Assembly (NCBI GenBank): GCA_027334715.1
Contig: DAHWUG010000001.1
Coordinates: 277,993 to 341,992 of the forward strand
Source: Nanobdellota archaeon
GTDB taxonomy: Archaea > Nanobdellota > Nanobdellia > Pacearchaeales > GW2011-AR1
Direction: 5' to 3'
Length of the DNA stretch: 64,000 nucleotides
In this document: in pieces, positions 15,007-61,039 of the stretch
Layout of the letters: each line of letters begins with the position of its first letter
Position numbering within the stretch: the first letter of the stretch is position 1
Notes under the pieces: model-generated
Told to the model about the DNA's origin: nothing
The model's database searches: none
Seen by the model: only the letters and a program-made list of their open reading frames with translations
Program-made: the position numbers and the translations under genes

Positions 15007-15078
15007 CTCTTTTATTTATTAACTTAAAAATGGTAACATCTAATAAAGTTTATAAAGTAGCAATTTATCCCACTTTTC

Positions 15079-15234
15079 ATGAAAGTTAAGCTAAGCATCT
15101 CTATGGAAGAAGAGCTGGACAAGAGGCTCGAGGACAAAGTGAAAGACAGCATTTTCAGGAACAAAAGCCATTTAATAGAATACGCCGTGAAATCATTCTT
15201 GAAAAAGGAAAAAATGGAGGCAAGAGCAAAATGA
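15079..15234 (+). CDS. ribbon-helix-helix (CopG/Arc/MetJ-like) small DNA-binding protein, 51 aa, not in ORF track
   Basis: MKVKLSISMEEELDKRLEDKVKDSIFRNKSHLIEYAVKSFL has the beta-strand plus two-helix pattern; its stop overlaps the start of the next gene (ATGA). Confidence 0.55.
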   Translation: MKVKLSISMEEELDKRLEDKVKDSIFRNKSHLIEYAVKSFLKKEKMEARAK

Positions 15235-17558
15235 GCGCTAAAGAAGACGCGTGGGCATTCAAGCAAAATAATCTAATAGAGGGATATGGAAATAAACTCT
15301 CTTCTATTGAAGGTCATATAATTCCTGTTCCAGAACCAAAAAGACTTCAACCAGCAACACCTGCTGATTTAGAGTACAGAGACGGAGATATTCTTCAAAT
15401 ATATGAACTTGGGGAAAAACTTGCAAACACAGAAAATGGCGGACAGGGAACTATTTACAGAGCAAAGAGAAAATCAGATGGCCTTGATACTGTTGTAAAG
15501 GTTTATGCAGCAGCAGAAACAGGAAACTGGGATGATATTTTTACTGAAGAGAAAAGAGCAGGGCGTGAAATAAGATTCCTTGAAAGAGCAAACAGAGAAG
15601 GAGTTCCTGGAGTTCCAAGAATAGTCCAGCATGGGGTTACAGGTTCTTTCATAAAGACGCCTGTTGCTGTCTTTGATTTCATTCCTGGAAAATCTCTGGA
15701 AGAGGAAGTTCTTGATCAAAGTTATTCCCCTTCAGCAGAAAATGTTCTAGGACTTTTCTCAGGTTTGGTTCCTGCCTTGGAATATGCTCATCATTCAAAT
15801 GGTGTAAAGCCTGTTGTTCACAGAGATATCAATCCTGGAAACATAAAAGTCAATGGGCATCCTGTTCTTATGGATTGGGCTTCTTCTACACCAACTAGTG
15901 GAAAAACCCAGTTAAGAACACATATGTTCACAGAATATTTCACAGCTCCAGAAGTTGTTGGAGGAAGTGCATTTGATGGAAGAGCTGATATCTATAGCAT
16001 GGGAAAAGTCCTCCAGTTCATGCTTTTAGGGCAGGTTTTCAAAGATGCAGATGGAAATCCCAAAACCAGCGATTTTGACAGATTAAATATTCCAAAAGAA
16101 GTTGCACAAATACTTGCAAAAGCAACACAAGAAAATCCAGATAAAAGATACAAGACAGTAAGGGAATTTTATCATGCTTTGGAATCTGTTTTCCAGACAG
16201 GAAGAAGCATGCCAACAAGAAATGAACTGCTAAAACATGAGACTGCTAAACCTGGAGATTGCATTGTTAAGATTAATGAAGATGGATCTGTTCATATTGG
16301 CTATTTCGAACCAGAACTTCCAGATAAACCTCACTGTGGAAACACCTTTGAGGGAAAAACTGTCTATGATATTTTTAGAGCCATAAATACTTATCTTTTA
16401 AATATTGGTTCTGACGAGGCAACTCTTGCGTATGCAAAGCATGTTGCACAGACAAATCCTTTAGTAAGAGGTACATTGGAAGGCAAAAGGACTTTGGAAG
16501 ACGTTGCAAGAGAGAAGAAACCTCGCTTTGATATTACTGATTTATTAGAAAAAATACCTTTTGTAAAATCATCTCGTTATCCTGAACCAGAAAGAGATTT
16601 AGAAGAAGCAAAAGACAAGTATCTTGCTAAAAGAAAACAGTTATATGAAATTTTTGGAGTGAAAGAAATGAGGGATTTGAATGTTGGTTCTGTAAGTTTA
16701 AGTGTTGGAGGCAGCATTGTTGGTGTCGCCGCAGGGACTTTTTCTGCTTTTAACTTAGGAATGTATGACACTCTTTCAGGAGCTTTGTTTGCTATGGGCA
16801 CTACAGTAATAGGGGCGATTTTAGGTCTAAACATTGGAGAATATATAGTAAACAAAAAACTACAAAAAAAGGCGCGTGAAGTTGATTCATGGATTAGGGA
16901 AGCAAAAAGAGCGCAAGGATTAGAAGGGAAAGTTGGAGAAGGAGAAATAAAGTTGACGGAGGAAGAAATAACAAGAATAAAAGATGATGTCGTGATTTAT
17001 AGAGCAGGAATACCTTTTTTAGGGGCTTTGATTGATTGTGGTTATACTTTTCTCACAAAAAATTATGGTGTTGCTTTAGGCGCATTACTTTCGTTACCTT
17101 TAATAGGAGAAACTGTAGGTTTTCTTGCTACAAAATATCTCAAGAATAAAAAGCTCAAACAAAAACGCCTTACTGCGGGGTTGGATGAAGACGGGATGAA
17201 AGCGTATGCTGGATTAATCACTGGAGACTCTAAAAATCTACCTTCAAGAACTCCAAAACTTGAAAAAATATTCTCTGTATTAAAACTTAAGAAAAGTTTC
17301 TTGAAACAAAAATTTAAAAATTCTAAAGCTAAAGTTAAATTAGATAATTATCGTGTAATAATAAGTGCTCTTCCTTCAGAAGAATTAAGGGCAAAAAATA
17401 TATATGATAATATAAGACAGTATTATGAGATTAATACTGTTTTTTCAAATTTCCCGGACCACTTTCAGCCATTTCAAGCAGGAGTAATCCTAAGCGACGA
17501 AACAAAAATGCCTGATGTAAGAAGAATCAATGGAGTTGGCGGTGTAGCAATTAATTAA
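15231..17558 (+). CDS. protein-kinase-like (PKL) phosphotransferase domain fused to a glycine-zipper multi-TM domain and basic C-terminal tail
   Basis: Gly-rich loop GQGTIYRAK, VVKVY lysine, catalytic loop VHRDINPGNIKV (HxDxxxxN), LMDW (DFG-equivalent), FTAPE; residues about 480-640 hydrophobic and GxxxG-rich; 775 aa. Confidence 0.6.
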   Translation: MSAKEDAWAFKQNNLIEGYGNKLSSIEGHIIPVPEPKRLQPATPADLEYRDGDILQIYELGEKLANTENGGQGTIYRAKRKSDGLDTVVKVYAAAETGNWDDIFTEEKRAGREIRFLERANREGVPGVPRIVQHGVTGSFIKTPVAVFDFIPGKSLEEEVLDQSYSPSAENVLGLFSGLVPALEYAHHSNGVKPVVHRDINPGNIKVNGHPVLMDWASSTPTSGKTQLRTHMFTEYFTAPEVVGGSAFDGRADIYSMGKVLQFMLLGQVFKDADGNPKTSDFDRLNIPKEVAQILAKATQENPDKRYKTVREFYHALESVFQTGRSMPTRNELLKHETAKPGDCIVKINEDGSVHIGYFEPELPDKPHCGNTFEGKTVYDIFRAINTYLLNIGSDEATLAYAKHVAQTNPLVRGTLEGKRTLEDVAREKKPRFDITDLLEKIPFVKSSRYPEPERDLEEAKDKYLAKRKQLYEIFGVKEMRDLNVGSVSLSVGGSIVGVAAGTFSAFNLGMYDTLSGALFAMGTTVIGAILGLNIGEYIVNKKLQKKAREVDSWIREAKRAQGLEGKVGEGEIKLTEEEITRIKDDVVIYRAGIPFLGALIDCGYTFLTKNYGVALGALLSLPLIGETVGFLATKYLKNKKLKQKRLTAGLDEDGMKAYAGLITGDSKNLPSRTPKLEKIFSVLKLKKSFLKQKFKNSKAKVKLDNYRVIISALPSEELRAKNIYDNIRQYYEINTVFSNFPDHFQPFQAGVILSDETKMPDVRRINGVGGVAIN

Positions 17559-31768: not shown

Positions 31769-32344
31769 ATGAATAATGGACTAAGTGTTGTTGCGGCATG
31801 CTGGATTGTTTTTCTTGTTTACTGGTTTATCTCTTCTTTTTTTGCAAAAAAATCCGTCACAAAAAGAAATTTTAGATGGAAATGGATAGTTGCCATAATA
31901 TTGTTTGCAATAATAATAAACTCTGGTGTAAGACTTTTCAGTATCTCATTTTCACCTATTTTCTCACAGCTTTTCTTTCCTTCATATACAGTTGAGTTTA
32001 TTGGATCGTTCTTTGCAGTTGTTGGCGTTATAGGAGCTGTTTGGGCAAGGACAACACTTGGAAGAAATTGGAGCGGATATGTCACATACAAAAAAGACCA
32101 TGAGTTAGTTACAAACGGGCCCTATAGATGGGTGAGGCATCCTATTTACAGCAGCTTATTGTTAATGTTAATAGGAACTTTCATTTATGATCCGACGCTA
32201 GTGGTCATAATAATCTTTCCTGTTTATTTTGGCATTTTCTTCTGGAGAATAAGAAAGGAAGAGGAAATCATGATAAATCTTTTTGGCAACAAGTACAGAA
32301 ATTACATGAAAAGGACAAAGAGGCTCATCCCATTTGTCTGGTGA
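31769..32344 (+). CDS. isoprenylcysteine carboxyl methyltransferase / phospholipid methyltransferase family membrane protein
   Basis: RWVRHPIYSSLLLMLIG motif; 4-5 TM. Confidence 0.6.
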   Translation: MNNGLSVVAACWIVFLVYWFISSFFAKKSVTKRNFRWKWIVAIILFAIIINSGVRLFSISFSPIFSQLFFPSYTVEFIGSFFAVVGVIGAVWARTTLGRNWSGYVTYKKDHELVTNGPYRWVRHPIYSSLLLMLIGTFIYDPTLVVIIIFPVYFGIFFWRIRKEEEIMINLFGNKYRNYMKRTKRLIPFVW

Positions 32345-34281: not shown

Positions 34282-34734
34282 ATGCAAAACAAAAAGGGTT
34301 TGTCGGAAATTGTGGCTACTTTGATAATAATCCTATTGACACTTGTTGCTGTAGGAATTATTTGGGTTGTCATAAAGGGAGTTGTTACGAGCGGAACAAA
34401 TCAAATAAGCGTAACTTCTGAGTGCACTGCTATTAATCTGAATGCAGTATCTGTTAATGAAAGTTCTCCAGGAATTTATGATGTTACATTGCATAGATCA
34501 TCTGGCGGAGATAACACACTTGCAGGCATAAAGGTTAATATATTTAATGATACAACAAGCAGCGGACCAATGGACTTTGGAACACTTAACTTGCTAGATC
34601 AGCATACTGTATCTTTAAATACATCAACTGCAACACTTGTAACAGGCGGAAACAGGATTGAGTACACTCCGTTCTTCAAGGATTCATCAGGTAATGAACA
34701 GCTCTGCTCAGGAACACAGTCATTTTCATTTTAA
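34282..34734 (+). CDS. archaeal type IV pilin-like protein (class III signal peptide)
   Basis: MQNKKGLSEIVATLIIILLTLVAVGIIWVV: KG followed by an E(+5)-containing hydrophobic helix. Confidence 0.6.
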   Translation: MQNKKGLSEIVATLIIILLTLVAVGIIWVVIKGVVTSGTNQISVTSECTAINLNAVSVNESSPGIYDVTLHRSSGGDNTLAGIKVNIFNDTTSSGPMDFGTLNLLDQHTVSLNTSTATLVTGGNRIEYTPFFKDSSGNEQLCSGTQSFSF

Positions 34735-36843: not shown

Positions 36844-37530
36844 ATTAAGTTAGGCATTATTAAAGGTGCAACAGAAGAAGAACTAAAGTCAAAAAAGTTC
36901 AATATTTATCTGGGTATAAGCTTAGGAAACAAGTGGTTTACAAAAGATAATACAAGAGAACATTTAAACTTCGCTTTGAAGTATACTAAAGATAGAATTG
37001 GATTACTTGTTGCAGATACTCTTCACGCAATTAATTATGAGATTAGGAATAAAATTTCTTATGAAAAAAGCTATAAAAAATCTCTTCAAAAAGGCACAAA
37101 GTTTATAGAAATTTTAAAGGAATTAATTGAAGAGTTGCCAGAAAAAGAACAAAAGAGAATTGATATAATAAGATGGGATGATATTAAAAAAGAGAAATTA
37201 TATAGAGAATTATTCCCCATTGCTAAAAAAGAGTTTAGAGAGGATAATACTTTCAAAGAAGCTATTTTAGATATAATCAGAGAACAGGTCAAACAAGAGG
37301 ACAGAATATTTAGTAAAAAAGATATAGAAAGATTTGGAGAATATATAATTGAAGAACTTCCCGAACTAGCTAATGGCTTTATTTTCAAAAATACTTATTA
37401 TAATTGTTATTTATATCCTTATTATAGCAAACTTGCTCAATTTGTTGAAGATTTACAACAAGGAAAAATCTTCACGCAAATCAGTGAAAAACTTGTAAAG
37501 AGGTATAATGTTTTTGTAGAATTAAGGTAA
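36844..37530 (+). CDS. cyclodipeptide synthase (CDPS)-like protein, tRNA-dependent; start codon unresolved
   Basis: Open frame from the stop at 36841: ...KKFNIYLGISLGNKWFTKDNTREHLNFALKYTKDRIGLLVADTLH (compare AlbC ALIGISAGNSYFS...VVYVDTH), later EYIIEELPEL (Y-x3-E) and YYNCYLYPYY; 228 aa; first ATG/GTG/TTG only at 36976. Confidence 0.55.
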   Translation: MKLGIIKGATEEELKSKKFNIYLGISLGNKWFTKDNTREHLNFALKYTKDRIGLLVADTLHAINYEIRNKISYEKSYKKSLQKGTKFIEILKELIEELPEKEQKRIDIIRWDDIKKEKLYRELFPIAKKEFREDNTFKEAILDIIREQVKQEDRIFSKKDIERFGEYIIEELPELANGFIFKNTYYNCYLYPYYSKLAQFVEDLQQGKIFTQISEKLVKRYNVFVELR

Positions 37531-49151: not shown

Positions 49152-50003
49152 ATGTGGAACCAAATTAAAACAGTGCTGCTGCTTGGAGTACTTACAGCTA
49201 TTTTATTATTAATAGGCGGGTTTTTCGGAAAAACAGGGCTTACTATTGCAATAATAATCGTTGTCCTTATGAACTCTGTAACATATTTTTTCTCTGACAA
49301 GATTGCCCTCATGATGTACAGGGCGAAACCAATTAAAAAAACACAGTATCCATGGCTTCATGAAATGGTGAAAGATATTGCAAAAAGAGCTGGAATACCT
49401 GGACCAAATGGAATTTACATAATACCAACAGAGCAGGCAAATGCTTTCTGTGCCGGAAGAGGACCAAAGCATTATGTTGTAGCATGCACAGAGGGAATAC
49501 TAAAAATACTTGACAAAGACGAGCTCAAAGGAGTTCTTTCCCATGAATTAAGCCATGCAAAGAACAGGGATGTTCTTGTTGCAACAGTTGCGGCAACAAT
49601 TGCAGGAGTTATTTCATATCTTGCGCAAATGGCCCAGTTCGCAGCAATATTTGGAGGAATGGGAAACAATAATAACAATAACTCAGGAGGAATGATTGAA
49701 ATTCTTGTTCTGGCAATTCTTACACCGATAATTGCAGTTATAATACAACTTTCAATATCAAGAAGCAGGGAATACATGGCAGATGAATCAGGAGCGAAAC
49801 TGCTGAAAGACGGAAAGCCATTGGCAACAGCCCTTGAAAAAATAGACAGCTCTGTAAAGAACACTCCGATGAAATTCGGAAACAAGGCAGCAAACAGCCT
49901 GTTCATTGAGAACCCATTTAAAGGAAGCTCTTTAACAAACCTTTTTTCAACGCACCCCCCTTCAGCAGAGAGAATAAAAAAGCTAAGGGAAATGAAATTT
50001 TAG
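49152..50003 (+). CDS. htpX: M48 zinc metalloprotease HtpX
   Basis: HELSHAKNRD (HExxH) plus downstream EYMADE; 4 TM. Confidence 0.85.
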   Translation: MWNQIKTVLLLGVLTAILLLIGGFFGKTGLTIAIIIVVLMNSVTYFFSDKIALMMYRAKPIKKTQYPWLHEMVKDIAKRAGIPGPNGIYIIPTEQANAFCAGRGPKHYVVACTEGILKILDKDELKGVLSHELSHAKNRDVLVATVAATIAGVISYLAQMAQFAAIFGGMGNNNNNNSGGMIEILVLAILTPIIAVIIQLSISRSREYMADESGAKLLKDGKPLATALEKIDSSVKNTPMKFGNKAANSLFIENPFKGSSLTNLFSTHPPSAERIKKLREMKF

Positions 50004-50151: not shown

Positions 50152-50457
50152 ATGGAAATAAAAGAAGTTAAAGAATTCCTTGAGAGCCTTACACAGTATA
50201 ATATCAGTTTCGACCCACATTTTTACAAAAGGGCCGGAGAGAGGCCAGTAAATGAAAGCATGGTCAGAAATTTTTTATCCAGAATAGATAAGTTGGAGAA
50301 AATTGAAATAGGGAATAATGACAGATTTAAATTGTGGTTTAGAATGAGTAGAAAATATTCATTAGTTTTAATAATTGAAATCAGCATCCAAAAACATTTA
50401 AAAGTAATAAGTGCTTGGAATACCAATAAGAAATGGCAAAACCAATTAAGACGATAG
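50152..50457 (+). CDS. DUF4258-like protein (putative toxin component)
   Basis: HFYKRAGERPVNESMVRNFL pattern; paired with DUF2283. Confidence 0.4.
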   Translation: MEIKEVKEFLESLTQYNISFDPHFYKRAGERPVNESMVRNFLSRIDKLEKIEIGNNDRFKLWFRMSRKYSLVLIIEISIQKHLKVISAWNTNKKWQNQLRR

Positions 50458-50789
50458 ATTACGATCCTGAAAATGACATATTCTTCATTTCTAATGGAGA
50501 TAAGGTAAAAGCTTCTCTAGATATTGGAGATTTCGTCTTGGATGTTAATCATAATGATTTAGTTTGCGGAATAGAGATAATAGATGCAAGTGAGAATCTT
50601 GGAATTGCTAAGAGAGTACTAGAGGATATTAAAAATATAAAGATGTCTGTTAATTATAAGCCTAACCATGTTTATGTCCTTCTTATGATAGCTTTTAAGA
50701 AAGAGGATAAAGCAGTTAACGTTCCTATTCCATTAACTCTTGATTTGGGGCATAAGACCGATAAAACACAAGTTTTAGTGTACAATTAA
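50433..50789 (+). CDS. DUF2283-like protein (putative antitoxin component)
   Basis: IDYDPENDIFFISNGDKV...DLVCGIEIIDAS. Confidence 0.45.
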   Translation: MAKPIKTIDYDPENDIFFISNGDKVKASLDIGDFVLDVNHNDLVCGIEIIDASENLGIAKRVLEDIKNIKMSVNYKPNHVYVLLMIAFKKEDKAVNVPIPLTLDLGHKTDKTQVLVYN

Positions 50790-50846
50790 CTTTCAACTCC
50801 CAGCATGTGGATTGTTATTCATAAGATTTCAAGAATTTTAATAATC

Positions 50847-51356
50847 TCAAATAACTCCTATTTGGTTTCTATCTTCGTAAATTATCTTCCCAATTTTTCT
50901 TTTTGTATTAAAATTGTAAAGGATTTTATTTTTTTCATCATCTTTCCTGAAACATACTTTTTTAATAAGTTTTATTTTTTTAAAATCCAAAAATCTCTTA
51001 CTCACTTTAAATATAGTTTTTGCAGGATTTAACATTTCTCTATGAAATTTTAATAAAGTTTTCTCGTATTTTTCTTTCCCAAGTCTCTTAAAATAAAATT
51101 TTATTCCTTTCTTACTTTCTGGAGAGAAAAGCCAAGAACTGATTTTATTTTCTTTTTTAACCCATCTAGAATATTCTTTTGCCCATTCTTTTCCGAATCT
51201 TTTACCGGTTTCTTTATTAAGGAGTTCGTCCATCTTGACAAATATGCCTTTATTCCTATATAGATATCTGTAATAAATTTCTTTTTTCATATTATTATTA
51301 ATTGATTCAAACTTATAAATTAACCATTTAAAACTAAGTCTTTGTAAACCATACAA
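50847..51356 (-). CDS. hypothetical basic protein
   Basis: ORF track. Confidence 0.35.
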   Translation of the reverse strand: MYGLQRLSFKWLIYKFESINNNMKKEIYYRYLYRNKGIFVKMDELLNKETGKRFGKEWAKEYSRWVKKENKISSWLFSPESKKGIKFYFKRLGKEKYEKTLLKFHREMLNPAKTIFKVSKRFLDFKKIKLIKKVCFRKDDEKNKILYNFNTKRKIGKIIYEDRNQIGVI

Positions 51357-51447
51357 TAACGCTCAAACTAGGCGTGGGCGATTTCGTTTAAAAGTATTAA
51401 ATGAAAATCACAATAATCTTTAAAAAGAGTTAAAAATAAGTATTTTT

Positions 51448-51747
51448 ATGACAGCGTTTTTGGATTTAGAACGAGAGATATCAAGGGTGATTCCTGCTGA
51501 ATCTTTTGCAAATAGAGTTGCATGGGCTCTTGCAAAAGCAGTTAAAGAAAGACATGGAAATTTGGGAGATAGGCTGCTTGTAAATTATAAAGATTCTTCT
51601 TTTGATTTGTTAGAAAGATTAGGAATGACTGCTGGCGGGAGATATATAACTGACAATAAAGTTAGTGATTATTATACGCTAAATCAAAAAGCAATTGATA
51701 CTCATATAGCTCTTTGCCAAGAAGGATTTTACGGATTTGACCATTAA
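51448..51747 (+). CDS. hypothetical protein
   Basis: ORF track. Confidence 0.3.
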   Translation: MTAFLDLEREISRVIPAESFANRVAWALAKAVKERHGNLGDRLLVNYKDSSFDLLERLGMTAGGRYITDNKVSDYYTLNQKAIDTHIALCQEGFYGFDH

Positions 51748-51845
51748 AGAATTGTTTGATGCAGCTCTTCCAATTATAACTACTTTTTAGGCAATTTCGC
51801 AAGTTTTTTAATATCTGGTTTTTTATGCTTTAAAGAAAAGAGAGG

Positions 51846-54233
51846 ATGATAAACACCCAAAATTATAAAGGCCTGACAAATTCTGAGGCAGAAGAAAAGA
51901 CAAAGCAATTTGGACTGAACGAGATACCTGAAAAGAAAGCAGGGTTTTTCAATAAAGCCGGAAAATGGCTTATTTCCCCGATAAGTCTTATGCTCATAGC
52001 TGCTTCTGTATTGTCATTCATAGGAAACAAAACATTCGACGGGTATTTCATAATTTTCCTTCTTTTCCTTAATTTTGGTGTTAGTTTCTGGCAAGAAAGC
52101 AAGGCTGACAGGGCTGTGGAAGATCTGAAAGAAAAGTTAAGAATAAGCATAAACGTGCTTAGAAATGGAAAATGGATTTACCTTGATTCAAAATATCTTG
52201 TTCCAGGAGATATTGTAAGACTGAATATAGGGGATATAATACCTGCAGATGCGCAGATTATCAGCACAAATAATCTTTCTGTCAATGAGTCTGTGATAAC
52301 AGGGGAATCACTGCCAAAAGACAAGAAAGAAAAAGATTATGTTTATTCCGGATCATATATCTCTTCCGGAATGTGTACTGCAAAGATAACATCAACAGGA
52401 AAAAACACATCATTTGGAAAGACCCTAATATCAATTGAGACAAACAAAAAAACAAGCATTCTTGAGGCAGACATACTAAGAATTGCAAAATACCTTTCAC
52501 TTATATCAATAGGGGTTGCATTAATCCTTACTGCTGTTTTCCTTATAGGGCATCAATCCCTTAATGAGCTTCTTGTCCTTGATTTAAGCCTTCTTATTGC
52601 TGGCGTGCCTATAAGTTTGCCTACTGTCATGACGCTTATAATAAGTATAGGAGTTGTTTCCCTATCCAAAAAAGATGTAATTGTAAGAAGGCTTTCAAGC
52701 CTTGAGGACTTTTCAAATGTAGATCTTCTTCTTACAGACAAAACAGGAACCCTGACAAAAAACCAGATTAATGTAGAGAAGGTAATATCCTACAACAAAT
52801 TTAAGGAACAGGATGTAAGAAAATACAGCTTTTATGCAATACAGGGAAATGAAAAAAATCCGCTTGATCTTGCAATAATTAACAATTCAAAAGCAAGGGG
52901 AATTGGGGGAAAGCCCGCTTTCATTGGTTTTATCCCATTCGATTCATCAAGAAAAAGGAGCACTGCAACAATAAATGACAATGGAAGAATTGTTACATTA
53001 AGTCTCGGAGCCCCTCAAGTTATAGAAGAATACTGCTCTTTTAAGAAGGGAGAAAAAAAAGAATTTGAAAAGGATTTCACAGATGCAGGAAAGAAGGGAT
53101 ACAGATCTCTTGCAATTGCAATGGCAAATGGAAGCAGCGAAAAAAACCTGAAACTTGTCGGAATGATTCTTCTTTCAGATACTCCCTATTCTGATATAAA
53201 GGATTCAATAAAATTCATGGAAGAAAATGGAATTAGCGTAAAGATGCTGACAGGAGACAGTGATGCAATCGCAAAAAGGGTTGCAAAAGACATGGGATTT
53301 AAGGGGAAAATCGTGAGCAAGGATTATTTTGAAAATGGAACAAGAAGCATGAAAGCAGGATGGATTAATTCTGTTGCAGGATTTTCAGAGATACTTCCAA
53401 ACGACAAAATGGAAATAGTGCAAACCAGCCAGAAGGAAGGAAATGTTGTTGCTGTGACAGGTGATGGGGTGAATGACCTTCCTGCAATACACTATGCAGA
53501 TGTTGGAATAGCTGTGAATGGAAGCGTTGATGCATTAAAAAGTTCTGCAGACATTGTTCTCCTGAAAAATGGGCTTTCTGTAATAAAAGATGCAATAATA
53601 GAAGCAAGGAAAATATTCAGCAAGCTTTACACATATTCAATATACAGGGTATCTGAAAGCTTCAGGCTAATAATGTCTATAGGCGTTTTAGGTATAGCCT
53701 ATGGTTTGTTCCCTTTGACTGCAATACAGATAATACTTCTTGCATTGCTGAATGACCTTCCCACCATAAGCCTTGCATATGACAGGGTAAAGCTAGCCAA
53801 CAAGCCCGCAAGCATAAATGTAAGGAAGAGATTTTTTATATCGACTATTTTTGGACTGGTAGGATTGTTCAATTCAATTTTGTTCTTCATACTTGCAGAC
53901 AAGGTTTTTCATGTGCCATTTGCAATGATAGAAACCCTGTTTTTCCTTAAACTTGCAGTAGGCGGACATATGCTTATCTATGTGGCCCATACAAAAGATA
54001 GATGGTACAAATTCCTTCCATCAAAGCAGGTTATTACAGCAACACTAACAATACAGGCAATAGGGACAATACTTGCACTAACAGGCACTTTCATGAACAA
54101 AATACCATTAAGCTATGCTTTGATAGTCTGGGCATGGGCATTTTTCTGGATGCAGGTTACAGAAGTAACAAAGCATTTTTCGCAAGTACAGGGTCAGGCA
54201 GGCCAGAAAAAAGATGAAGACAGGGATTTGTAA
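51846..54233 (+). CDS. cation-transporting P-type ATPase, P3A/plasma-membrane H+-ATPase-like
   Basis: ITGESLP, DKTGTLT, TGDGVNDLPAI; 795 aa; about 10 TM. Confidence 0.85.
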   Translation: MINTQNYKGLTNSEAEEKTKQFGLNEIPEKKAGFFNKAGKWLISPISLMLIAASVLSFIGNKTFDGYFIIFLLFLNFGVSFWQESKADRAVEDLKEKLRISINVLRNGKWIYLDSKYLVPGDIVRLNIGDIIPADAQIISTNNLSVNESVITGESLPKDKKEKDYVYSGSYISSGMCTAKITSTGKNTSFGKTLISIETNKKTSILEADILRIAKYLSLISIGVALILTAVFLIGHQSLNELLVLDLSLLIAGVPISLPTVMTLIISIGVVSLSKKDVIVRRLSSLEDFSNVDLLLTDKTGTLTKNQINVEKVISYNKFKEQDVRKYSFYAIQGNEKNPLDLAIINNSKARGIGGKPAFIGFIPFDSSRKRSTATINDNGRIVTLSLGAPQVIEEYCSFKKGEKKEFEKDFTDAGKKGYRSLAIAMANGSSEKNLKLVGMILLSDTPYSDIKDSIKFMEENGISVKMLTGDSDAIAKRVAKDMGFKGKIVSKDYFENGTRSMKAGWINSVAGFSEILPNDKMEIVQTSQKEGNVVAVTGDGVNDLPAIHYADVGIAVNGSVDALKSSADIVLLKNGLSVIKDAIIEARKIFSKLYTYSIYRVSESFRLIMSIGVLGIAYGLFPLTAIQIILLALLNDLPTISLAYDRVKLANKPASINVRKRFFISTIFGLVGLFNSILFFILADKVFHVPFAMIETLFFLKLAVGGHMLIYVAHTKDRWYKFLPSKQVITATLTIQAIGTILALTGTFMNKIPLSYALIVWAWAFFWMQVTEVTKHFSQVQGQAGQKKDEDRDL

Positions 54234-54272
54234 AAAATAAAAGTTTTTAAAGTTATAAAACGCTGGAAAATT

Positions 54273-55781
54273 GTGAAAATGAACAACTCCAAGTCTTTTT
54301 TGGCTGGAGAGGTGATTGCATCTGCATTAATTATCTTAGCATTTGTTCCTTTGATTAATGCGTCTGCAATAGGAACTTTTCCCGGATTTTTTTGGGACAA
54401 TGTAACAAATTTAACAATTACAGTAAGTCAGAACAGCTCGCAAGCAAGTTTTAACTTAAACACAATAGGTACTCCTTTTGATAACCAGATAGTTGTGTTT
54501 AGCGGAACAATAGGCTCTGGCGGTTACACTGTCGGAGATATTACTCAAAGCTTTAGCTTGTCTGGAATCCTAAACTCAGTTGATGGTAATGTCAGCATTG
54601 CAAAGGGAAACAGCATACCAAAATTCATCAGCCTTAACCTTCATCCACAATCTCCTTGGGATTTTTACCTGCCATTGGCATTGTCTTCTTACAATATGAA
54701 TGTCAGCCAAATAAATAATGATTGCCTGACTAATGGTTGCTCAATATTCAACAATTATCTTGTTAACCATAATATAACCATACCTTCTGATGCAAACATA
54801 AATTTCACAAAGTCAGGAACAAGCTATGCAATTTCATCAGACAGCGGCTACGGGAATGCCAGCACATACAGGAACAATATAACACACATAATAACTGATT
54901 CAGTTATGCAGATGAATATTTCCACTATTATCTCAGACATCCTGCCCATGATAACTAATAACTTGACATATCTTAACTATAGTGTTTCACAGCCACTTCT
55001 CAACTCCCTTAATATTGAGTATTATTTAAATTCAGTTGATTTGTCTAATGTGCAACTTAAAAATGGAAGTTATGTAGTCCCTATAACAATCAGCAATGGC
55101 ACATTAAGCTATCAAAAAAATGTTTATCTGAAAATTGAAGGAGTTCAAAATGCTCTGAATGTAACTCTGGACACAACTCCTCCTGTAATTAACATAACAT
55201 CTCCGCAGAATTCTGAAAATTATACAAACCAAATAACAGAGATAAATTACACTGCAACAGATGACAATCTTGAATCCTGCTGGTATAGCCTAAACCAAGG
55301 AGTTACTAATACAACAACCGCATGCAATACAATTATTACAGGCATTTCTTCTTTTAATGGAGAAAATACATGGACAGTATATGCGAATGACACTGCAGGA
55401 AATCAGGCAAGTGAAAGCGTAACTTTTTTCTTTGCTGAAAACTCAACAAACAGCACAAAAGATAATTCTACTGGCGGAAATAATGGCGGAGGAGGAACAG
55501 GAACAGGTGGTGGCGGAGGAACAGGCGGAGGTTCTGGCAGCAGGCATAGCAGCAGAACAGCATACATTGCTTCGCCGATAAATAATCCATCACAAGCATA
55601 CAACTCAGGCTCTAGCACAGGAAAAAGTACAATAACTGCGCTTACGGCAGCACCCCTAAATTCAAATGGCAACTATTCCGACTTCGCAGGTATATTTGTC
55701 ATTATAAGTTTGTTCACAGGATTAGGAATTTTTTTAGCAATAGTAACATTTTCATCAAGGCGTAAAAAAGTAAGATTATAA
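54273..55781 (+). CDS. cell-surface (S-layer/hami-like) glycoprotein with signal peptide, many N-x-S/T sequons, Gly/Thr linker and C-terminal TM plus basic tail
   Basis: Signal peptide ...VPLINASA; GGNNGGGGTGTGGGGGTGGGSG linker; C-terminal GIFVIISLFTGLGIFLAIVTFSSRRKKVRL. Confidence 0.55.
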   Translation: MKMNNSKSFLAGEVIASALIILAFVPLINASAIGTFPGFFWDNVTNLTITVSQNSSQASFNLNTIGTPFDNQIVVFSGTIGSGGYTVGDITQSFSLSGILNSVDGNVSIAKGNSIPKFISLNLHPQSPWDFYLPLALSSYNMNVSQINNDCLTNGCSIFNNYLVNHNITIPSDANINFTKSGTSYAISSDSGYGNASTYRNNITHIITDSVMQMNISTIISDILPMITNNLTYLNYSVSQPLLNSLNIEYYLNSVDLSNVQLKNGSYVVPITISNGTLSYQKNVYLKIEGVQNALNVTLDTTPPVINITSPQNSENYTNQITEINYTATDDNLESCWYSLNQGVTNTTTACNTIITGISSFNGENTWTVYANDTAGNQASESVTFFFAENSTNSTKDNSTGGNNGGGGTGTGGGGGTGGGSGSRHSSRTAYIASPINNPSQAYNSGSSTGKSTITALTAAPLNSNGNYSDFAGIFVIISLFTGLGIFLAIVTFSSRRKKVRL

Positions 55782-55788
55782 TCTGCAA

Positions 55789-56466
55789 ATGAAAAATACA
55801 AATCATGCAAATAAATATCTGGAAAATTTATCCGAGAAGTTAGGAAGAAAAGTTTTAAGAGCTACAGGCCTATGTGCTATTCTTGTCTCAGCTTTTACAT
55901 CTTGCAAGGATGTTCCGTTCATGCCAAGATGGGATATAGACACTTACATGCCTTTAGGGACAAGCGCAGTATATTTGAATGATTTCTTTACTTTTGGATT
56001 AATTCCATCCGGAATTTCAGCAAAAATCAGCTCTGTGCCAAAAAAATATGAGATGTACGGGGCGCTCAGAGATGCACTAAGAAGCATAGAAACAGATTCT
56101 GCAAGAGCAAGAACTGTGCTTACGCTCAGTTTTGCAAAAAGAACACCTATATACACAACTGACACATTATTCATTTCTTCTGATTCCAGCGGGCTTAATA
56201 ATTATGGAAAAGGGAATATAATTTTTCCAATCAGCCTTGAGACAACAGATACTCTAAAGACAGATTCAATCATTTTGCCGCAAGAATCAATTAATATGCT
56301 GCAGAATGCAGCAGGCATGGGAAATCCGTTATGGATTCAGACAAGAGGTTATGTCAGCAACCAATCAAGCAGTTCTATAAAAATTACATCTGCAGATTCT
56401 ATGAATGTAAATCTTGATGTTACAGCAAGAATTTTTGTTTCACAGAGCAGGGAAGGACAACAATGA
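55789..56466 (+). CDS. membrane-anchored or lipoprotein-like protein (lipobox-like AFTSC)
   Basis: LCAILVSAFTSCKD; 4-nt overlap with the downstream beta-barrel gene. Confidence 0.35.
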   Translation: MKNTNHANKYLENLSEKLGRKVLRATGLCAILVSAFTSCKDVPFMPRWDIDTYMPLGTSAVYLNDFFTFGLIPSGISAKISSVPKKYEMYGALRDALRSIETDSARARTVLTLSFAKRTPIYTTDTLFISSDSSGLNNYGKGNIIFPISLETTDTLKTDSIILPQESINMLQNAAGMGNPLWIQTRGYVSNQSSSSIKITSADSMNVNLDVTARIFVSQSREGQQ

Positions 56467-57806
56467 AAAAAATAATTCTGGGACTGGCAAGCCTTTTAAT
56501 GCCTGCGATGCTCAAAGCGCAGCTTCCAAATCCTTCTACCAGAGCGCTTGGTATGGGTGAAGCATATACTTCAATGGCTAGAGGTTATGAATCAGTTTTC
56601 TGGAACCCCGCTATGCTGGCAACTGAAGGAAATCCTGATTTCAGCATAAGCCTTCCGCATGCAGATCTGGAATTTGACAGCAATATTTACAGTTTTTCTG
56701 ATTTCAGAAGATATGCCAATCATTATCTGAGCTCTGCAGACAAGCAGACATTGATGAATAAATTAGCGCCAGATTCATCCCTTACAGTTAGCACAAAATT
56801 TAATGCGTCACTATTTGGCTTTTCAGCGGGTAATTTTGCTTTTGAAATAGGCACATCAGGGCAAGGAGATTTATCAGTAAACAGCGACGCAATGCAGCTT
56901 TTATTGTATGGAAATGCTGGACAGACAGGTCCTGGCCAATTTTTTACTGCAAATGGATCAAAAGGGCATGCATGGGCTGCGACAACTGCTGCTGCAAGTT
57001 TTGCATTACCATTTTATCTACAGAAAAATGTATTGTCTGTAGGAATTACAGGGAAATACACTATAGGGCATTTCATTGGTTCTGCAGAAGATTTAGGTTC
57101 AAGAATAAATGCAAATCCTTCATTTTCCGCGACAGAAGAAGCGCAGACGGTTTATACAAGTTATGGGGGCAACTGCACGAGCATTAATTTTTTAAAAGGC
57201 GGAAACTGCGGCGGGAAAGCAGGGGCAGGAATTGGCGCAGATTTGGGGGCAGTGCTTCAGATGCCAGATAAAGAAGTGACTATATCTGCTGTTATTGTCA
57301 ATGCTATTAACAGCATGAGATGGGACAAAAACCGGCTCATTTATGAAAGAACAGACTGCGAAACAGCCAGGAATTCATCAGGAGATTTTGTTAAAACATG
57401 CACTGATTCAACAAAACTCACAACACAATCAGCAATTAATGCAGACAGTCAAGCACGCGATTTCCAAAGCTATCTGATGGAAAATTCCGGCTTCTCCAGG
57501 CTTATACGGCTTGGATTTGCAGTCAAAAAAGGGAATCTATCAATAGGCAATGCTATGCAGTTAAGGTTATCCAATGGTCTTGATGAGCAGCCTGCAGCAC
57601 TAATTTCAGCAGGATTGGAATACAATATCCTTGGGTTTTTGCCAATAAGGGTCGGCTCTTCCTGGGATTTCAACAATAGAAAAACGATTTCAGTGGGTGC
57701 AGGCCTGCAGGTGAAAGGCGTTAGTATAGACGCTGCAATAGAAAGCATTTCAGAGTCAGATTATTCAGGAATTAAATTAGGCGTTGGAGCAGGACTTATC
57801 TGGTAA
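56463..57806 (+). CDS. FadL/TodX-like outer-membrane beta-barrel protein (signal peptide, C-terminal aromatic beta-signal)
   Basis: Signal peptide MKKIILGLASLLMPAMLKAQ; N-terminal ALGMGEAYTSMARGYESVFWNPAMLA resembles the FadL start; alternating amphipathic strands; ends ...GIKLGVGAGLIW. Confidence 0.5.
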   Translation: MKKIILGLASLLMPAMLKAQLPNPSTRALGMGEAYTSMARGYESVFWNPAMLATEGNPDFSISLPHADLEFDSNIYSFSDFRRYANHYLSSADKQTLMNKLAPDSSLTVSTKFNASLFGFSAGNFAFEIGTSGQGDLSVNSDAMQLLLYGNAGQTGPGQFFTANGSKGHAWAATTAAASFALPFYLQKNVLSVGITGKYTIGHFIGSAEDLGSRINANPSFSATEEAQTVYTSYGGNCTSINFLKGGNCGGKAGAGIGADLGAVLQMPDKEVTISAVIVNAINSMRWDKNRLIYERTDCETARNSSGDFVKTCTDSTKLTTQSAINADSQARDFQSYLMENSGFSRLIRLGFAVKKGNLSIGNAMQLRLSNGLDEQPAALISAGLEYNILGFLPIRVGSSWDFNNRKTISVGAGLQVKGVSIDAAIESISESDYSGIKLGVGAGLIW

Positions 57807-57880
57807 TATAATGAAAACAAAAAAGCCATTTTATCACCGAATAGTTTATAAAGTAAGAGGGAGTTTTAAAAAGACAGAAA

Positions 57881-59437
57881 ATGAGCAACTCCAAATTACT
57901 TTTGATTGGAGGGGTGTTAATTATATTTGCCATCGTGGCAATTGTCCCTTTGATGAAAGCTTCTTCTATTAGTGATTTCATTAATGCCACAAACATAAGC
58001 ATTGAAATAACTCAAGATAATGTAACAGCAAATCTTTATCTAAATACGGCAGGCACATCTTTTGACCCGCAAAAATTAACCTCAAATGATATAAACATGG
58101 CTGATCTTGTCAACCAAATTGGATGTTCTAATTTCAATAACTTGAGTTTTGGTTGTAATAATATATCCAGTATTACTTTTAATATTTCTGATTTTTTAAA
58201 TGCGATAAATGGGACAGCTGAAATAGCAAACAACACAAATTTTATCAATTTAACTTATTTATCAGTTTCTTCTAATCTTATTAATTTAGAAGTAACTACT
58301 AATGTACCTGGACAGGAGGGAAATGTTAGCATTAATTTATCAGAAATATTACCAAATATAACGACTATTAATAGTGAGTTAGCAGCAAACAATCTTAGTG
58401 TAACTTCTGATAGAAATATTATTTTTACAAAATCTGGAAACAATTACACCATTTTCAGTGATGAAGGTTATGGAAGCATAGGTCAAAACAAAACCCATAT
58501 AAGCGATTTAATAAGCCAGGATATCGGAAACATAACTTTACATAATTTAATCAAAAATATAATTCCTACAACAACGAGCAAAACTTTGGATGACTTTTTT
58601 AATGGAGCAAATTTAAATTATTCAGTTACTTCAGTTAACCTTTCAAATGTCAATTTAGAAGATGGGAATTATAATGTTAATGTAAGCATAAGCGATGGAA
58701 CAAATACATATTACAAAATTATCTATTTAACTTTGTATGGAATACAGAACTCAGACAGCGGGACAGCAGATTCAAGCGGGGTTTATATCCCAGTAAATCC
58801 AAATGTTTATTATTATCTTGAGAATGTAACAGGTCTTAATAATGGAACAAATGTATCTGTATCCTTATTTGATGTTTTCCCAAGTCCTGCTCCTCCGTCC
58901 AACATGCTGAATGTCATAAAGTACATTAATTTCAGTGTTTATCCGGACAATAGCAGCAATTATACAATATATTTCAAAGTTCCAGTTGATAAAATCACAA
59001 ATCATTTAGATGTTTTCTTGTACCACCTCGTAAATGAACAATGGGTGCAATTATCAACAGAATATCTTAGCACAGATAATACTTTCGATTATTACCTAGC
59101 AACAACACCCAGCTTTTCAATGTTTATGATAATGGAGACAACTGCACCTGTTGCAACGGCATCAACAGGTGGCTCTGTATATGGCGGACGTTTAATTTTG
59201 CCTTCAACACAGGCCCCTGCAAATCCAGCCCCAACACCAATCAATGCAGCACCTGCACCTTCAACACCACCAAAGGGATTTTTTGCAACAATAACCGGTG
59301 CAATTATTGGAGCATTAGGCACACCGGAGGGAATTATAGCGACAATATTCATAGTATTGGTCATTGGAGCATTAATAGCTGTATTTATTATCCTTAGGGG
59401 TAAGGGCAAGCCAGAAAAGGGCAAGAAGAAAGAATAA
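57881..59437 (+). CDS. paralogous cell-surface glycoprotein with Pro/Thr linker and possible PGF-CTERM-like tail
   Basis: N-terminus homologous to 54273 protein; C-terminal APANPAPTPINAAPAPSTPPKGFFATITGAIIG...FIILRGKGKPEKGKKKE. Confidence 0.55.
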   Translation: MSNSKLLLIGGVLIIFAIVAIVPLMKASSISDFINATNISIEITQDNVTANLYLNTAGTSFDPQKLTSNDINMADLVNQIGCSNFNNLSFGCNNISSITFNISDFLNAINGTAEIANNTNFINLTYLSVSSNLINLEVTTNVPGQEGNVSINLSEILPNITTINSELAANNLSVTSDRNIIFTKSGNNYTIFSDEGYGSIGQNKTHISDLISQDIGNITLHNLIKNIIPTTTSKTLDDFFNGANLNYSVTSVNLSNVNLEDGNYNVNVSISDGTNTYYKIIYLTLYGIQNSDSGTADSSGVYIPVNPNVYYYLENVTGLNNGTNVSVSLFDVFPSPAPPSNMLNVIKYINFSVYPDNSSNYTIYFKVPVDKITNHLDVFLYHLVNEQWVQLSTEYLSTDNTFDYYLATTPSFSMFMIMETTAPVATASTGGSVYGGRLILPSTQAPANPAPTPINAAPAPSTPPKGFFATITGAIIGALGTPEGIIATIFIVLVIGALIAVFIILRGKGKPEKGKKKE

Positions 59438-59481: not shown

Positions 59482-60303
59482 ATGGTTAGCAGTAACTTTA
59501 TTTCTGTGAGCGCAGTTTCTAATCGTGAGCAATTAAGGGAGATTAATAAAATTTATAGGGAAAATGGTGAATTCCCTTTCCATTTAGCCATTGGGTATCA
59601 AGTATCAAGCAAAAGCATTAATCAAGGAACCCAAAACCCAAGGCAGCCAAAGTTTGCAGACCTAGGAGAATTAAGCCAAGAAACATGGAATTACAGGATG
59701 ATTCCTGCAGTTCATTATTATACAAAAGATGGTGAAACAATTATTAGCGACCTTGAAAAAGTAGCTGCCATAATTCCAATGGGAACTATTCTTCAGCTTA
59801 ATATTCTTCCTCCTTCATTAAATGTTTTAGAAAAAATCAGAATGATGGGGTTTAATCCAATCTTTAAAGTAGCTGTTTCTGACAAGCAATCTTCAGAAGG
59901 AGGCTATGCAGTGTGGAAAGGAGAAGGAGTTCAGGACGTAAAAACTGGGGAAATTGGGCCATTAATTGAACAAGTCAGGGAAAGAAGAGGTTTTATTGAT
60001 TATGTCATGTTTGACCCGAGCCATGGAACAAACCTTGACCTTACATTAGATGAGAATAGTTTAGCAATAAGGTTTGGTAGAGAAATAGCAGAGAGCCATG
60101 ATTTAGATAGTCTTGGTCTTGTGTACGCTGGCGGAATAAAACCAAGTAATGTTAAAACTGTCTTAAACTCTCTTTTTACATATTTCCCTAGAAGAAGAAT
60201 TAGCATTGATACAGAAAGCGGGGTAAGAACGAGCGATAATCAGCTTGATATGGGCTTAGTCAGGCAGTATCTTGAAAATTGCAGGTATGTTTTAGAAAGG
60301 TAA
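59482..60303 (+). CDS. TIM-barrel protein with PRAI (TrpF)-like C-terminus
   Basis: VYAGGIKPSNV...ISIDTESGVRTSDNQLDMGLVRQYL resembles the TrpF phosphate-binding end. Confidence 0.3.
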   Translation: MVSSNFISVSAVSNREQLREINKIYRENGEFPFHLAIGYQVSSKSINQGTQNPRQPKFADLGELSQETWNYRMIPAVHYYTKDGETIISDLEKVAAIIPMGTILQLNILPPSLNVLEKIRMMGFNPIFKVAVSDKQSSEGGYAVWKGEGVQDVKTGEIGPLIEQVRERRGFIDYVMFDPSHGTNLDLTLDENSLAIRFGREIAESHDLDSLGLVYAGGIKPSNVKTVLNSLFTYFPRRRISIDTESGVRTSDNQLDMGLVRQYLENCRYVLER

Positions 60304-60307
60304 AGTT

Positions 60308-61039
60308 CTAATTCAGCTCCCCCACTTTTCCAAATTCATACACTTTGTCTTCTCCTATTACATATACCTTGAAATTTAAAATGTCCTTTCTGGGAATTAT
60401 TGAAAAATCCTCCCAAAAGTCGTCTTTGTATTCATTTACTGGAATTCCTTCATAGAAATTGACAAAACTTGGAACGACAATGAAAGTCTTGCCTTTTGAT
60501 TTTCCCTGTAGAAAGCATTTGTAGCTTTCTTTTTTCACGCCAGGATTCTCTGCAAGCGTGACAGAAGGATGAAGATGGCCTGAAACCACAAAATTTATTT
60601 TTTTGTCAAATGCTCCAGGATAAGAAACATGGCCATGAAGAAAGGCAATGTCATTTTCAATGTAATAATTTTTGAGGGGCAAGCCAAGCTCTGATGTATC
60701 GTGATTTCCTTTTATTATTACAATGTCTTTTTCTTTAACATACTCATTGAGAAATTCAAGTATTTTGTTGAAGTTCTTTTTTTCAATGTATTCCCAGCTG
60801 AACATGTGCTTGACATCTCCGAGAAAGACAATTTTCTTTATTGAATGTTTCTCATCCTGAATTTTTTTTATGATTTTCCTTAAATCTTCAATTACGTCCT
60901 TAACCTGCATTTCTGGAACAAGAATTCCAGATTCAATCAGGGCTTCCTCATAGCCAATATGCAAATCCCCTATTACAAGAATTCCTTCTACTGGGAAGAA
61001 CAGGCATTTGCCAATGAATTCGTATTTTTGCTCTGCCAT
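60308..61039 (-). CDS. calcineurin-like metallophosphoesterase
   Basis: GDLHIG, GDVKH, GNHD, GHLH motifs. Confidence 0.75.
   Translation of the reverse strand: MAEQKYEFIGKCLFFPVEGILVIGDLHIGYEEALIESGILVPEMQVKDVIEDLRKIIKKIQDEKHSIKKIVFLGDVKHMFSWEYIEKKNFNKILEFLNEYVKEKDIVIIKGNHDTSELGLPLKNYYIENDIAFLHGHVSYPGAFDKKINFVVSGHLHPSVTLAENPGVKKESYKCFLQGKSKGKTFIVVPSFVNFYEGIPVNEYKDDFWEDFSIIPRKDILNFKVYVIGEDKVYEFGKVGELN

Follow-up and report, generated by a model that had tools for sequence, protein, structure and literature searches.

Related barrels and archaeal envelopes

Beta-barrel proteins of the outer membrane rely on insertases of the Omp85 family and are considered a defining trait of diderm bacteria and of the organelles derived from them. 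To our knowledge, a barrel of this kind ordinarily requires the outer membrane of a bacterium, and archaea are not known to have such a membrane. DUF5723 (PF18990), the Pfam family of the barrel described here, comprises predicted outer-membrane barrels of diderm bacteria and has no assigned function; a Brachyspira member has likewise been modelled as a barrel with a signal peptide (bioRxiv 10.1101/2025.01.03.631275). Other points of comparison are FadL/TodX (PF03349), PorV and PorQ of type IX secretion, and the BamG–BamH pair of the Bacteroidota/FCB-group BAM complex (PMC12611786), to which the present pair would be similar in its proposed working principle only, not in membership. Archaea offer precedents for outer bilayers and for a barrel-type relative: double membranes have been reported in Ignicoccus, ARMAN, the SM1/Altiarchaeum lineage and Methanomassiliicoccus (PMC4243693), and a possible distal relative of outer-membrane proteins, PopA-like, has been noted in Altiarchaeales (PMC12228718). 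The barrel at our locus differs from these: it was imported recently, is restricted to one clade and can be traced to a donor. The literature that we searched on DUF5723, DPANN outer membranes, Pacearchaeota gene transfer and Gemmatimonadota–DPANN relations does not describe the module in archaea, and no paper in it mentions archaeal DUF5723.

A clade-specific island of four genes

The window, by which we mean the whole 64-kb stretch of archaeal DNA analysed, carries four adjacent forward-strand genes. surfA (54273–55781; 502 aa from a GTG, or 500 aa from the ATG at 54279 chosen by gene callers) is followed by a lipobox lipoprotein gene of bacterial origin (55789–56466; 225 aa), by a gene, also of bacterial origin, for an outer-membrane-type beta-barrel of the FadL/PorV class (56463–57806; 447 aa; Pfam DUF5723), and by the surfA paralogue surfB (57881–59437; 518 aa). 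Conserved genes bound the island on both sides, namely an HtpX-like M48 peptidase on the left (49152–50003, forward strand; Peptidase_M48 match; 90% identity to its orthologue in lineage L003) and an SbcD-related archaeal Metallophos phosphoesterase on the right (60308–61039, reverse strand; TIGR00024, 120 bits). In the sister archaeal lineages L041 and L048, these two genes directly adjoin each other without the four-gene block, which is therefore a clade-specific island. Two further elements vary within it. A secondary, window-specific insertion (50152–54233), with four small open reading frames (ORFs), including one for a DUF2283 protein, and a 795-aa P-type cation ATPase (Pfam domains), is missing in L003/L033 and L107, where surfA directly follows the peptidase gene; and orf273 (59482–60303, forward strand), which has no family, is an extra gene of the variable region that is missing in the L003 lineage.

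The four-gene arrangement recurs in four archaeal lineages and in over 20 assemblies that are independent of one another. The slightly raised GC of the barrel gene (0.41–0.44, compared with about 0.30–0.37 around it) might suggest a chimeric assembly, or an archaeal bin contaminated with bacterial DNA. However, the same junctions are found across the four diverged lineages in assemblies from JGI, ENA, Logan and NCBI, with contigs of up to 508 kb, so the contig is not chimeric, and archaeal codon GC3 is 0.20–0.33 compared with a GC of 0.70 in the bacterial gene. On this synteny and codon composition we reject the artefact, to which we assign a negligible probability. A mobile element or virus as the vector was also rejected: the island junctions are tight and show no sign of an integrase or of repeats, and viral contigs scanned with surfB and with the barrel profile yielded no relatives.

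An AT-rich TATA-like box, TTTTTAAAGTTATAAAA (54244–54260, forward strand), lies 19–35 nt upstream of the surfA ATG and is a putative archaeal promoter for surfA, the lipoprotein gene and the barrel gene. The 7-nt gap between surfA and the lipoprotein gene, and the 4-nt overlap (ATGA) of the latter with the barrel gene, leave no room for separate promoters of the pair, which appears to be co-transcribed with surfA. A second box, TTTATAAA (57845–57852, forward strand), 29 nt upstream of the surfB ATG, may serve as a separate archaeal promoter for surfB; lineage L103 has the same box and L003 a similar one. Both promoter roles are inferred from reading the DNA.

Flanking surface glycoproteins

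The initial annotation described the flanking genes as encoding two paralogous surface proteins of about 500 aa, with many N-glycosylation sequons, Gly/Thr or Pro/Thr linkers and C-terminal transmembrane segments with basic tails, and this description holds. SurfA and SurfB are paralogous over their N-terminal ~300 aa (31% identity, E = 2 × 10−29), and each has an N-terminal hydrophobic segment, a C-terminal transmembrane segment and a basic tail. Sequons of the form N-x-S/T exceed the expectation from composition in both (26 versus 14.7 ± 3.1 in SurfA and 25 versus 11.7 ± 2.9 in SurfB). SurfA consists of a signal or transmembrane segment, a family domain of ~300 aa, an Ig-like domain (residues 304–386, a weak Glucodextran_B/Big_13 match), a Gly-rich linker and the C-terminal segment and tail, and is predicted to be a native type-I surface glycoprotein. 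Its family is small and AT-rich (56 clusters among 1.84 × 10^9 representatives), and its omega relative to L003 is 0.21; that of surfB is 0.41. SurfB has a Pro/Thr linker and a PGF-pre-PGF domain (residues 345–418; TIGR04213, E = 2.3 × 10−11; 43.9 bits, above the cutoff of 28), as well as two hydrophobic segments near the C terminus and a tail rich in Lys. The PGF-CTERM-like reading of this tail in the initial annotation had to be abandoned: the PGF-CTERM model gives no match at E ≤ 1, the tripeptide differs among three lineages (KGF, RGL or TGF), and it is followed by two hydrophobic segments.

The barrel and its lipoprotein partner

The 447-aa product has the features first noticed in it, namely a Sec-type signal peptide (ending LKA|QLP), a FadL/TodX-like ALGMGEAYTS...WNPAMLA block near the N terminus and a terminal beta-signal ending in Trp (GAGLIW; G-x-G-L-I-W in the three full-length archaeal copies). 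Analysis of the fold found a 14-stranded barrel with an N-terminal hatch, as in FadL/TodX, together with the alternating lipid-facing hydrophobic residues and C-terminal aromatic beta-signal of outer-membrane proteins in general. The outward-facing hydrophobic fraction of the strands is 0.65 in archaeal and 0.68 in bacterial copies, and the inward-facing fraction 0.28 and 0.30, respectively. DUF5723 is assigned to the window barrel in precomputed tables. The family model scores 65.9 bits for P0003, an archaeal orthologue 64% identical to the window barrel, and 60.1 and 55.1 bits for the bacterial homologues P0016 and P0048 (gathering cutoff, 26.8); direct hmmscan of the window barrel itself gave no DUF5723 match, probably owing to HMMER speed filters, and neither the lipoprotein nor the barrel obtained an informative match in direct Pfam scans of the four proteins. 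The beta-barrel reading thus stands, with the copies here being archaeal members of a bacterial family.

Comparison with the FadL and PorV families, proposed as a check, gave a divided answer: similarity to PorV was seen below cutoff, and Toluene_X did not match. The window barrel scores 47.6 bits with PorV_fam, 26.1 with PorVQ2 and 16 with PorV (NCBIfam NF033709, NF033710 and NF033711; cutoffs of 90 or 250), and PorV_fam matches 41 of the 42 barrel family members, all below cutoff. No type IX secretion genes or CTD cargo occur within ±10 kb of the bacterial loci or in the 64-kb window. A search of PDB sequences with the barrel profile found only PorV (E = 0.55), and we therefore reject orthology to BamG, PorV or FadL. 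The pair has no detectable sequence relation to BamG and BamH.

A FadL-like transporter is a reading that we consider rather unlikely. As such, the barrel would be a passage for the fatty acids or lipids, both hydrophobic, that a lipid-dependent DPANN cell scavenges, and the lipoprotein would be a substrate-binding accessory. The window barrel is 14–16% identical to FadL/TodX and does not match Toluene_X (PF03349; cutoff, 29.7 bits), the best score in the family being 16.9 bits (P0016; E = 0.0023) and confined to the N-terminal 54 residues, and its sequence similarity points towards PorV/PorQ. FadL delivers its substrate laterally into an outer membrane, which would have no obvious meaning where none exists, and it is platform barrels that typically have a lipoprotein as an obligate partner; this pairing and the FCB-group origin of the barrel fit the protein-binding branch better.

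That the upstream gene is lipobox-like is borne out: a basic n-region and a hydrophobic h-region precede A-F-T-S-C39, and 61 family members, including the four archaeal ones, share the Cys without exception. The conserved tail after it reads C-K-D-x-P-F-x-P-x-W-D. Fold searches indicate a beta-sandwich or jelly-roll with generic jelly-roll and carbohydrate-binding-module (CBM) matches only, so no specific family could be assigned; the lipoprotein family is previously unnamed. The protein is much smaller than BamH, which it does not resemble beyond such generic jelly-rolls, and there is no BamA nearby. Neither Lgt/Lsp nor an archaeal equivalent was seen within ~64 kb plus flanks.

A single transfer from Gemmatimonadales

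The barrel and the lipoprotein encoded upstream of it occur as a fixed pair in Gemmatimonadales, where their genes come last in an operon encoding FHA, Ser/Thr kinase, PP2C and FHA-protease proteins. The bacterial module is thereby itself defined, as a DUF5723 and lipoprotein family pair that closes an FHA/kinase/phosphatase/protease operon. Among the matches listed in a scan of GTDB genomes, the family occurs in Gemmatimonadota only. The archaeal copies are monophyletic (200/200 neighbour-joining bootstraps) and nested among the bacterial ones, indicating a single transfer of both genes from bacteria to archaea. The donor belonged to Gemmatimonadales and the recipient to a Pacearchaeota (DPANN) lineage. 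Of the two implications initially drawn from an archaeal barrel, a double-membrane envelope or inter-domain transfer, the second is the one established. The GC content of the archaeal pair has since been ameliorated to 0.36–0.42, compared with 0.70 in bacteria.

Retention under purifying selection

The pair is kept by purifying selection. Omega is about 0.14 for the barrel and about 0.28 for the lipoprotein; the ORFs are intact in all four archaeal lineages, across which identity is 64–76% for the barrel (three full-length copies) and 58–82% for the lipoprotein, and 84 of 110 conserved sites are retained. Also kept are the translational coupling, which the initial annotation had noted, and, in the proteins, the signal peptide, the lipobox Cys, the lipid-facing hydrophobic stripe and the beta-signal at the C terminus. 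The archaeal branch has evolved 1.58 times faster than its bacterial sister, which, with no insertion machinery in evidence, would suit a neutral passenger, that is, a functionless relic of transfer in which decay has not yet set in. The selection, the intact ORFs, the preserved stripe and coupling and the fully ameliorated GC all speak against such a relic, and we regard it as very unlikely.

A proposed surface-display platform and candidate bilayers

The pair is an outer-membrane module captured once, as a unit, from Gemmatimonadales, and we consider it probable, if not strongly so, that the barrel acts as a membrane platform that holds the CBM-like lipoprotein at the archaeal surface. Sec would export both proteins, and the barrel would fold into a lipid bilayer and grip the lipoprotein through its conserved lipidated N-terminal tail, acting like PorV, PorQ and BamG of the FCB group. 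The CBM-like domain would thereby be displayed next to the glycoproteins on the outside of the cell, where its most plausible role is contact with a partner cell or the capture of glycans or lipids. Candidate bilayers for the barrel are the archaeon's own cytoplasmic membrane, an unrecognised outer layer and the membrane of a partner.

Were the second of these correct, the Pacearchaeota clade would be diderm and the pair a genuine outer-membrane complex. The lipid-facing stripe, aromatic terminus and beta-signal maintained under selection would be expected of such a complex, and the double membranes of other archaea and the Altiarchaeales relative mentioned above offer some encouragement. However, the 64-kb window contains no BamA/Omp85 insertase, and neither this nor any other outer-membrane biogenesis gene is found in the DNA available (window and flanks). 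Unlike a core envelope component, the module occurs in a single narrow clade and is missing from sister lineages, and the surface proteins on either side have ordinary transmembrane anchors at their C termini. A diderm archaeon is therefore improbable.

We attach an equally low probability to a partner-directed role, in which the archaeon would live fixed to a diderm bacterial cell, plausibly from a Gemmatimonadales lineage related to the donor, and the pair would work at or in that partner's outer membrane. Bacterial hosts of DPANN archaea have been proposed (PMC8204110). The donor is specifically from Gemmatimonadales, donor-type and recipient sequences occur in the same ENA ERZ272 accession range and in other JGI metagenomes, the retained GLIW beta-signal is the very one found in the bacterial sister group, and the pair shares a putative operon with an adhesin-like surface glycoprotein. 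Gene transfer, however, requires a shared habitat only, and we know of no mechanism by which a barrel could be inserted into an outer membrane from outside.

Implications

An archaeal lineage keeps a barrel and its lipoprotein partner within a putative surface-glycoprotein operon, with all membrane-embedding features preserved. That this clade uses the captured complex in a real bilayer outside its cytoplasmic membrane, either its own outer membrane or that of a Gemmatimonadales-type partner, seems to us a minority prospect. If true, it would be the first functional module of a beta-barrel outer-membrane protein and a lipoprotein in Archaea, and genomic evidence of a cell-surface interaction between an archaeon and a bacterium. 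The locus offers a handle on two questions, namely whether some DPANN archaea have non-canonical envelopes and whether some are in physical contact with bacteria rather than archaea, and for the latter the traceable Gemmatimonadales donor names a candidate partner.

Gene block and its archaeal context

The window is archaeal, and it and its orthologous loci encode the ribosomal proteins S27e, S24e and L10e, Spt4, Rpb7 and diphthamide synthase. An Lhr-type helicase, an archaeal phosphoesterase related to SbcD and a protein whose signal peptide is class-III pilin-like are also encoded there. All four co-oriented open reading frames (ORFs) of the initial annotation are present: surfA (54273–55781, +; 502 amino acids from a GTG, with ATG at 54279 chosen by gene callers), a lipoprotein gene (55789–56466, +; 225 amino acids), a barrel gene (56463–57806, +; 447 amino acids) and surfB (57881–59437, +; 518 amino acids). 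The lipoprotein gene begins after a gap of 7 nt from surfA and overlaps the barrel gene by ATGA, and AT-rich TATA-like boxes lie upstream of just two of the four genes, surfA (54244–54260) and surfB (57845–57852). Given only two such boxes and this tight spacing, the first three genes look like a single transcription unit.

For both middle genes, the closest labelled relatives are from 'Candidatus Pacearchaeota archaeon', placed by NCBI in the Nanobdellati, that is, DPANN. The identical four-gene order recurs in four diverged archaeal lineages, represented by the window (equivalent to loci L001 and L002), L103 (barrel identity 76%), L107 (lipoprotein identity 74%, GC 0.33) and L003/L033 (barrel identity 64%), drawn from JGI, ENA, Logan and NCBI assemblies with contigs of up to 508 kb. 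This shared order across lineages and sources rules out an assembly artefact; a chimera with bacterial DNA, raised at the outset, is likewise dismissed by the same junctions in independent assemblies.

Using the neighbouring gene for an HtpX-like M48 peptidase as an anchor, we retrieved 70 related metagenomic loci. The backbone Rpb7–orf187–orf269–M48...Metallophos–Lhr, in which Metallophos is the phosphoesterase gene, is kept where M48 is 71–76% identical. Among the sister lineages examined, Metallophos directly adjoins M48 (L041 and L048) or is separated from it by one unrelated 338-amino-acid ORF (L036), and therefore all four genes, both surface-protein genes included, are absent from this site. 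The block is a clade-specific island, and the junction is a variable site and a recurrent insertion hot spot. Two extra insertions in the window, one of four small ORFs (one DUF2283) and a 795-amino-acid P-type cation ATPase (50152–54233) and the other of orf273, which has no family (59482–60303), are missing from L003 and L107.

Elsewhere in the window, the SufB gene (6750–9356, −) is split by an intein, with the SufB halves at residues 10–294 and 705–850 and a C-terminal splicing motif at residues 675–696. A 319-amino-acid ORF (13970–14929, +) with a LAGLIDADG_3 homing-endonuclease-like domain is flanked by tRNA-Gly (13131–13202, −) and tRNA-Val (14935–15007, +). The eukaryotic-type Ser/Thr kinase domain of a 775-amino-acid protein (15231–17558, +) has its best NCBIfam likeness to MADS6 and PglW defence-system kinases, far under cutoffs. 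The product of 31769–32344 (+) belongs to the ICMT/PEMT family of membrane methyltransferases and resembles isoprenylcysteine carboxyl methyltransferase (E = 1e-16). A 150-amino-acid protein (34282–34734, +) whose signal peptide, MQNKKGLSEIVATLIIILL..., is of archaeal class III (type IV pilin-like) ends in ...SFSF and matches no Pfam family. Immediately 3′ of HisRS, a 184-amino-acid ORF (36976–37530, +) matches the cyclodipeptide synthase family PF16715 near threshold (E = 6e-6, 26.5 bits, cutoff 27); for a DPANN genome, a candidate tRNA-dependent CDPS beside an aminoacyl-tRNA synthetase is possibly of interest.

Native surface proteins

As originally described, surfA and surfB are paralogues, and nearly all members of their family are about 500 amino acids long, with an N-terminal hydrophobic segment, a C-terminal transmembrane segment and a basic tail. 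An exhaustive profile search with their shared N-terminal domain, run against 1.84 billion representatives, recovers no more than 56 clusters, and the family is AT-rich throughout, its weakest match (P0169) excepted. Sequons are enriched beyond composition in surfA and surfB and not in the lipoprotein or barrel. Both surface proteins are native to the archaeon. The suggestion of a PGF-CTERM-like protein holds in part: in surfB a PGF-pre-PGF domain scores above cutoff, and a genuine PGF-CTERM is unsupported.

A FadL-class barrel and its lipoprotein

By fold, the 447-amino-acid protein is a FadL/PorV-class barrel, as the proposed FadL/TodX likeness had anticipated. Fold-similarity values were 28.3 for FadL, 27.8 for a P. 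aeruginosa FadL homologue, 27.2 for TodX, 26.0 for BamG of the Flavobacterium BAM complex, 25.3 and 24.7 for the corresponding chains in the BAM complexes of P. gingivalis and B. thetaiotaomicron and 25.1 for PorV, with a clear fall thereafter (remaining porins ≤17.7). DSSP assigns 17 beta-segments; relatives of solved structure are 14-stranded, and a DUF5723 protein from Brachyspira has been modelled with 16 strands (bioRxiv 10.1101/2025.01.03.631275).

The archaeal orthologue P0003 (64% identical to the window barrel, P0001) and the bacterial homologues P0016 and P0048 match Pfam DUF5723 at 55–66 bits (65.9 for P0003; cutoff 26.8). Precomputed tables assign DUF5723 to P0001 itself; hmmscan of P0001 against Pfam returned no family, even at E ≤ 10, which is probably a HMMER speed-filter artefact and leaves a small discrepancy. 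Profile searches gave no match above cutoff to the FadL or PorV families: NCBIfam PorV/PorQ, matched by 41 of 42 family members, was sub-threshold (47.6 bits, cutoff 90), a weak Toluene_X match in P0016 fell on the N-terminal motif, and the family profile found no convincing solved protein (best, PorV, E = 0.55). Weighing these signals with the fold matches, we therefore assign the protein to the FadL fold class, yet reject orthology to FadL, PorV or BamG. A long-loop Cys pair (NCTSINFLKGGNC; 57150–57210, barrel residues ~237–248) is shared with the bacterial consensus. Relative to that consensus, the window protein has an additional pair, C299 and C313 (57350–57405, residues 299–313), which might be an added disulfide.

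The 225-amino-acid protein aligns, from the lipobox Cys onwards, with the product of the unannotated ~200-amino-acid gene preceding the bacterial barrel gene (42% identity, E = 4e-51). Profile search yields a family of 63 members; Cys39 is invariant in 61 of 61 aligned sequences, in which the tail after it, C-K-D-x-P-F-x-P-x-W-D, is the most conserved stretch. Judged by sequence, this protein is the barrel's bacterial partner.

Bacterial origin and retention

GTDB contigs (one genome per species) contain at least 23 matches, those listed being all Gemmatimonadota, mostly Gemmatimonadales. In a neighbour-joining tree, the three archaeal barrels are monophyletic (200/200 bootstraps) and nested among bacterial sequences, and 159 of 200 replicates give them a bacterial sister group; among 42 barrel homologues, only P0001–P0003 have an AT-rich amino-acid composition. 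Members of the sister group, the remaining close homologues and the most similar bacterial lipoprotein are housed in a fixed operon (GC 0.70–0.73) ordered FHA-zinc-ribbon, Ser/Thr kinase, PP2C, FHA-trypsin-like protease, lipoprotein, barrel. The lipoprotein–DUF5723 pair is always the operon end in the Gemmatimonadales loci (L007–L020, L104, L106 and L108), and convergent peptidoglycan-recycling genes follow (SSF transporter, GH3/NagZ, AnmK, MurQ-like). Transfer was limited to these final two genes. Inter-domain transfer, one of the options first offered, is shown by the nesting and the Gemmatimonadota homologues: a single event, from Bacteria to Archaea, moved both genes jointly. Viral contig scans (surfB; barrel profile) found no viral carrier of the pair. 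Taken as a whole, the Gemmatimonadales operon has the look of a trans-envelope system, as yet uncharacterised, for signalling or processing.

The imported genes have a GC content of 0.36–0.42, versus 0.70 in bacteria, and a GC3 of 0.20–0.33, an amelioration that indicates long residence. Omega between the window and L003, rough because dS is saturated, was 0.14 for the barrel, 0.28 for the lipoprotein, 0.06 for M48, 0.14 for Metallophos, 0.21 for surfA and 0.41 for surfB. The archaeal branch is 1.58 times as long as its bacterial sister. Of 110 positions at least 90% conserved in bacteria, 84 are identical in all three archaeal barrel copies and 10 are altered in all three, mostly from G/A to N/S. 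In the lipid-facing register, archaeal strands equal bacterial ones in hydrophobicity (0.65 versus 0.68), and the inward values are 0.28 versus 0.30. The cleavage context of the signal peptide (between A and Q) is invariant and the terminus G-x-G-L-I-W is that of the bacterial sister group, consistent with the Sec signal peptide and Trp-ending beta-signal recognized earlier; the ATGA overlap, and with it the proposed translational coupling, is kept across archaeal lineages. A decaying relic is therefore unlikely given omega, conserved sites, register, terminus and coupling, and the barrel appears to be still selected to sit in a bilayer.

Possible function and significance

Beyond the fold, pairing, origin and retention established here, we infer a mechanism by analogy. 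FadL-fold barrels of FCB-group bacteria repeatedly serve as protein-holding platforms, PorV and PorQ doing so in type IX secretion. Such a platform is the best available analogy for the pair, because the pairing is obligate, translationally coupled and co-transferred, the sequence signal is of PorV/PorQ type, the donor belongs to the FCB group and the post-Cys tail of the CBM-like lipoprotein is strongly conserved. The barrel would anchor the lipoprotein, which would be displayed at the surface beside glycoproteins putatively co-transcribed with the pair. The main functional rival to a platform is a FadL-like conduit for a lipid or hydrophobe.

No Omp85-type insertase is known from archaea, and none was seen in the available DNA (window and orthologous loci). 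The barrel may self-insert near the cell's own membrane; it may be received by an outer bilayer of the archaeon, unrecognized so far, for which there is archaeal precedent (PMC4243693) and, in Altiarchaeales, a protein possibly related to OMPs (PMC12228718); or it may act on the outer membrane of a bacterial partner, an idea raised for DPANN generally (PMC8204110).

Overall, the initial annotation is confirmed as an observation, and its interpretation is supported with small corrections. One orthologue is already auto-annotated as 'DUF5723 family protein [Candidatus Pacearchaeota archaeon]', and we found no paper noting or interpreting a DUF5723 protein in Pacearchaeota. Bacteria-to-DPANN gene transfer is well documented and the protein families are of known kinds; the unusual part is what was transferred, namely an outer-membrane barrel with its lipoprotein, kept under selection within an archaeal surface-protein operon.
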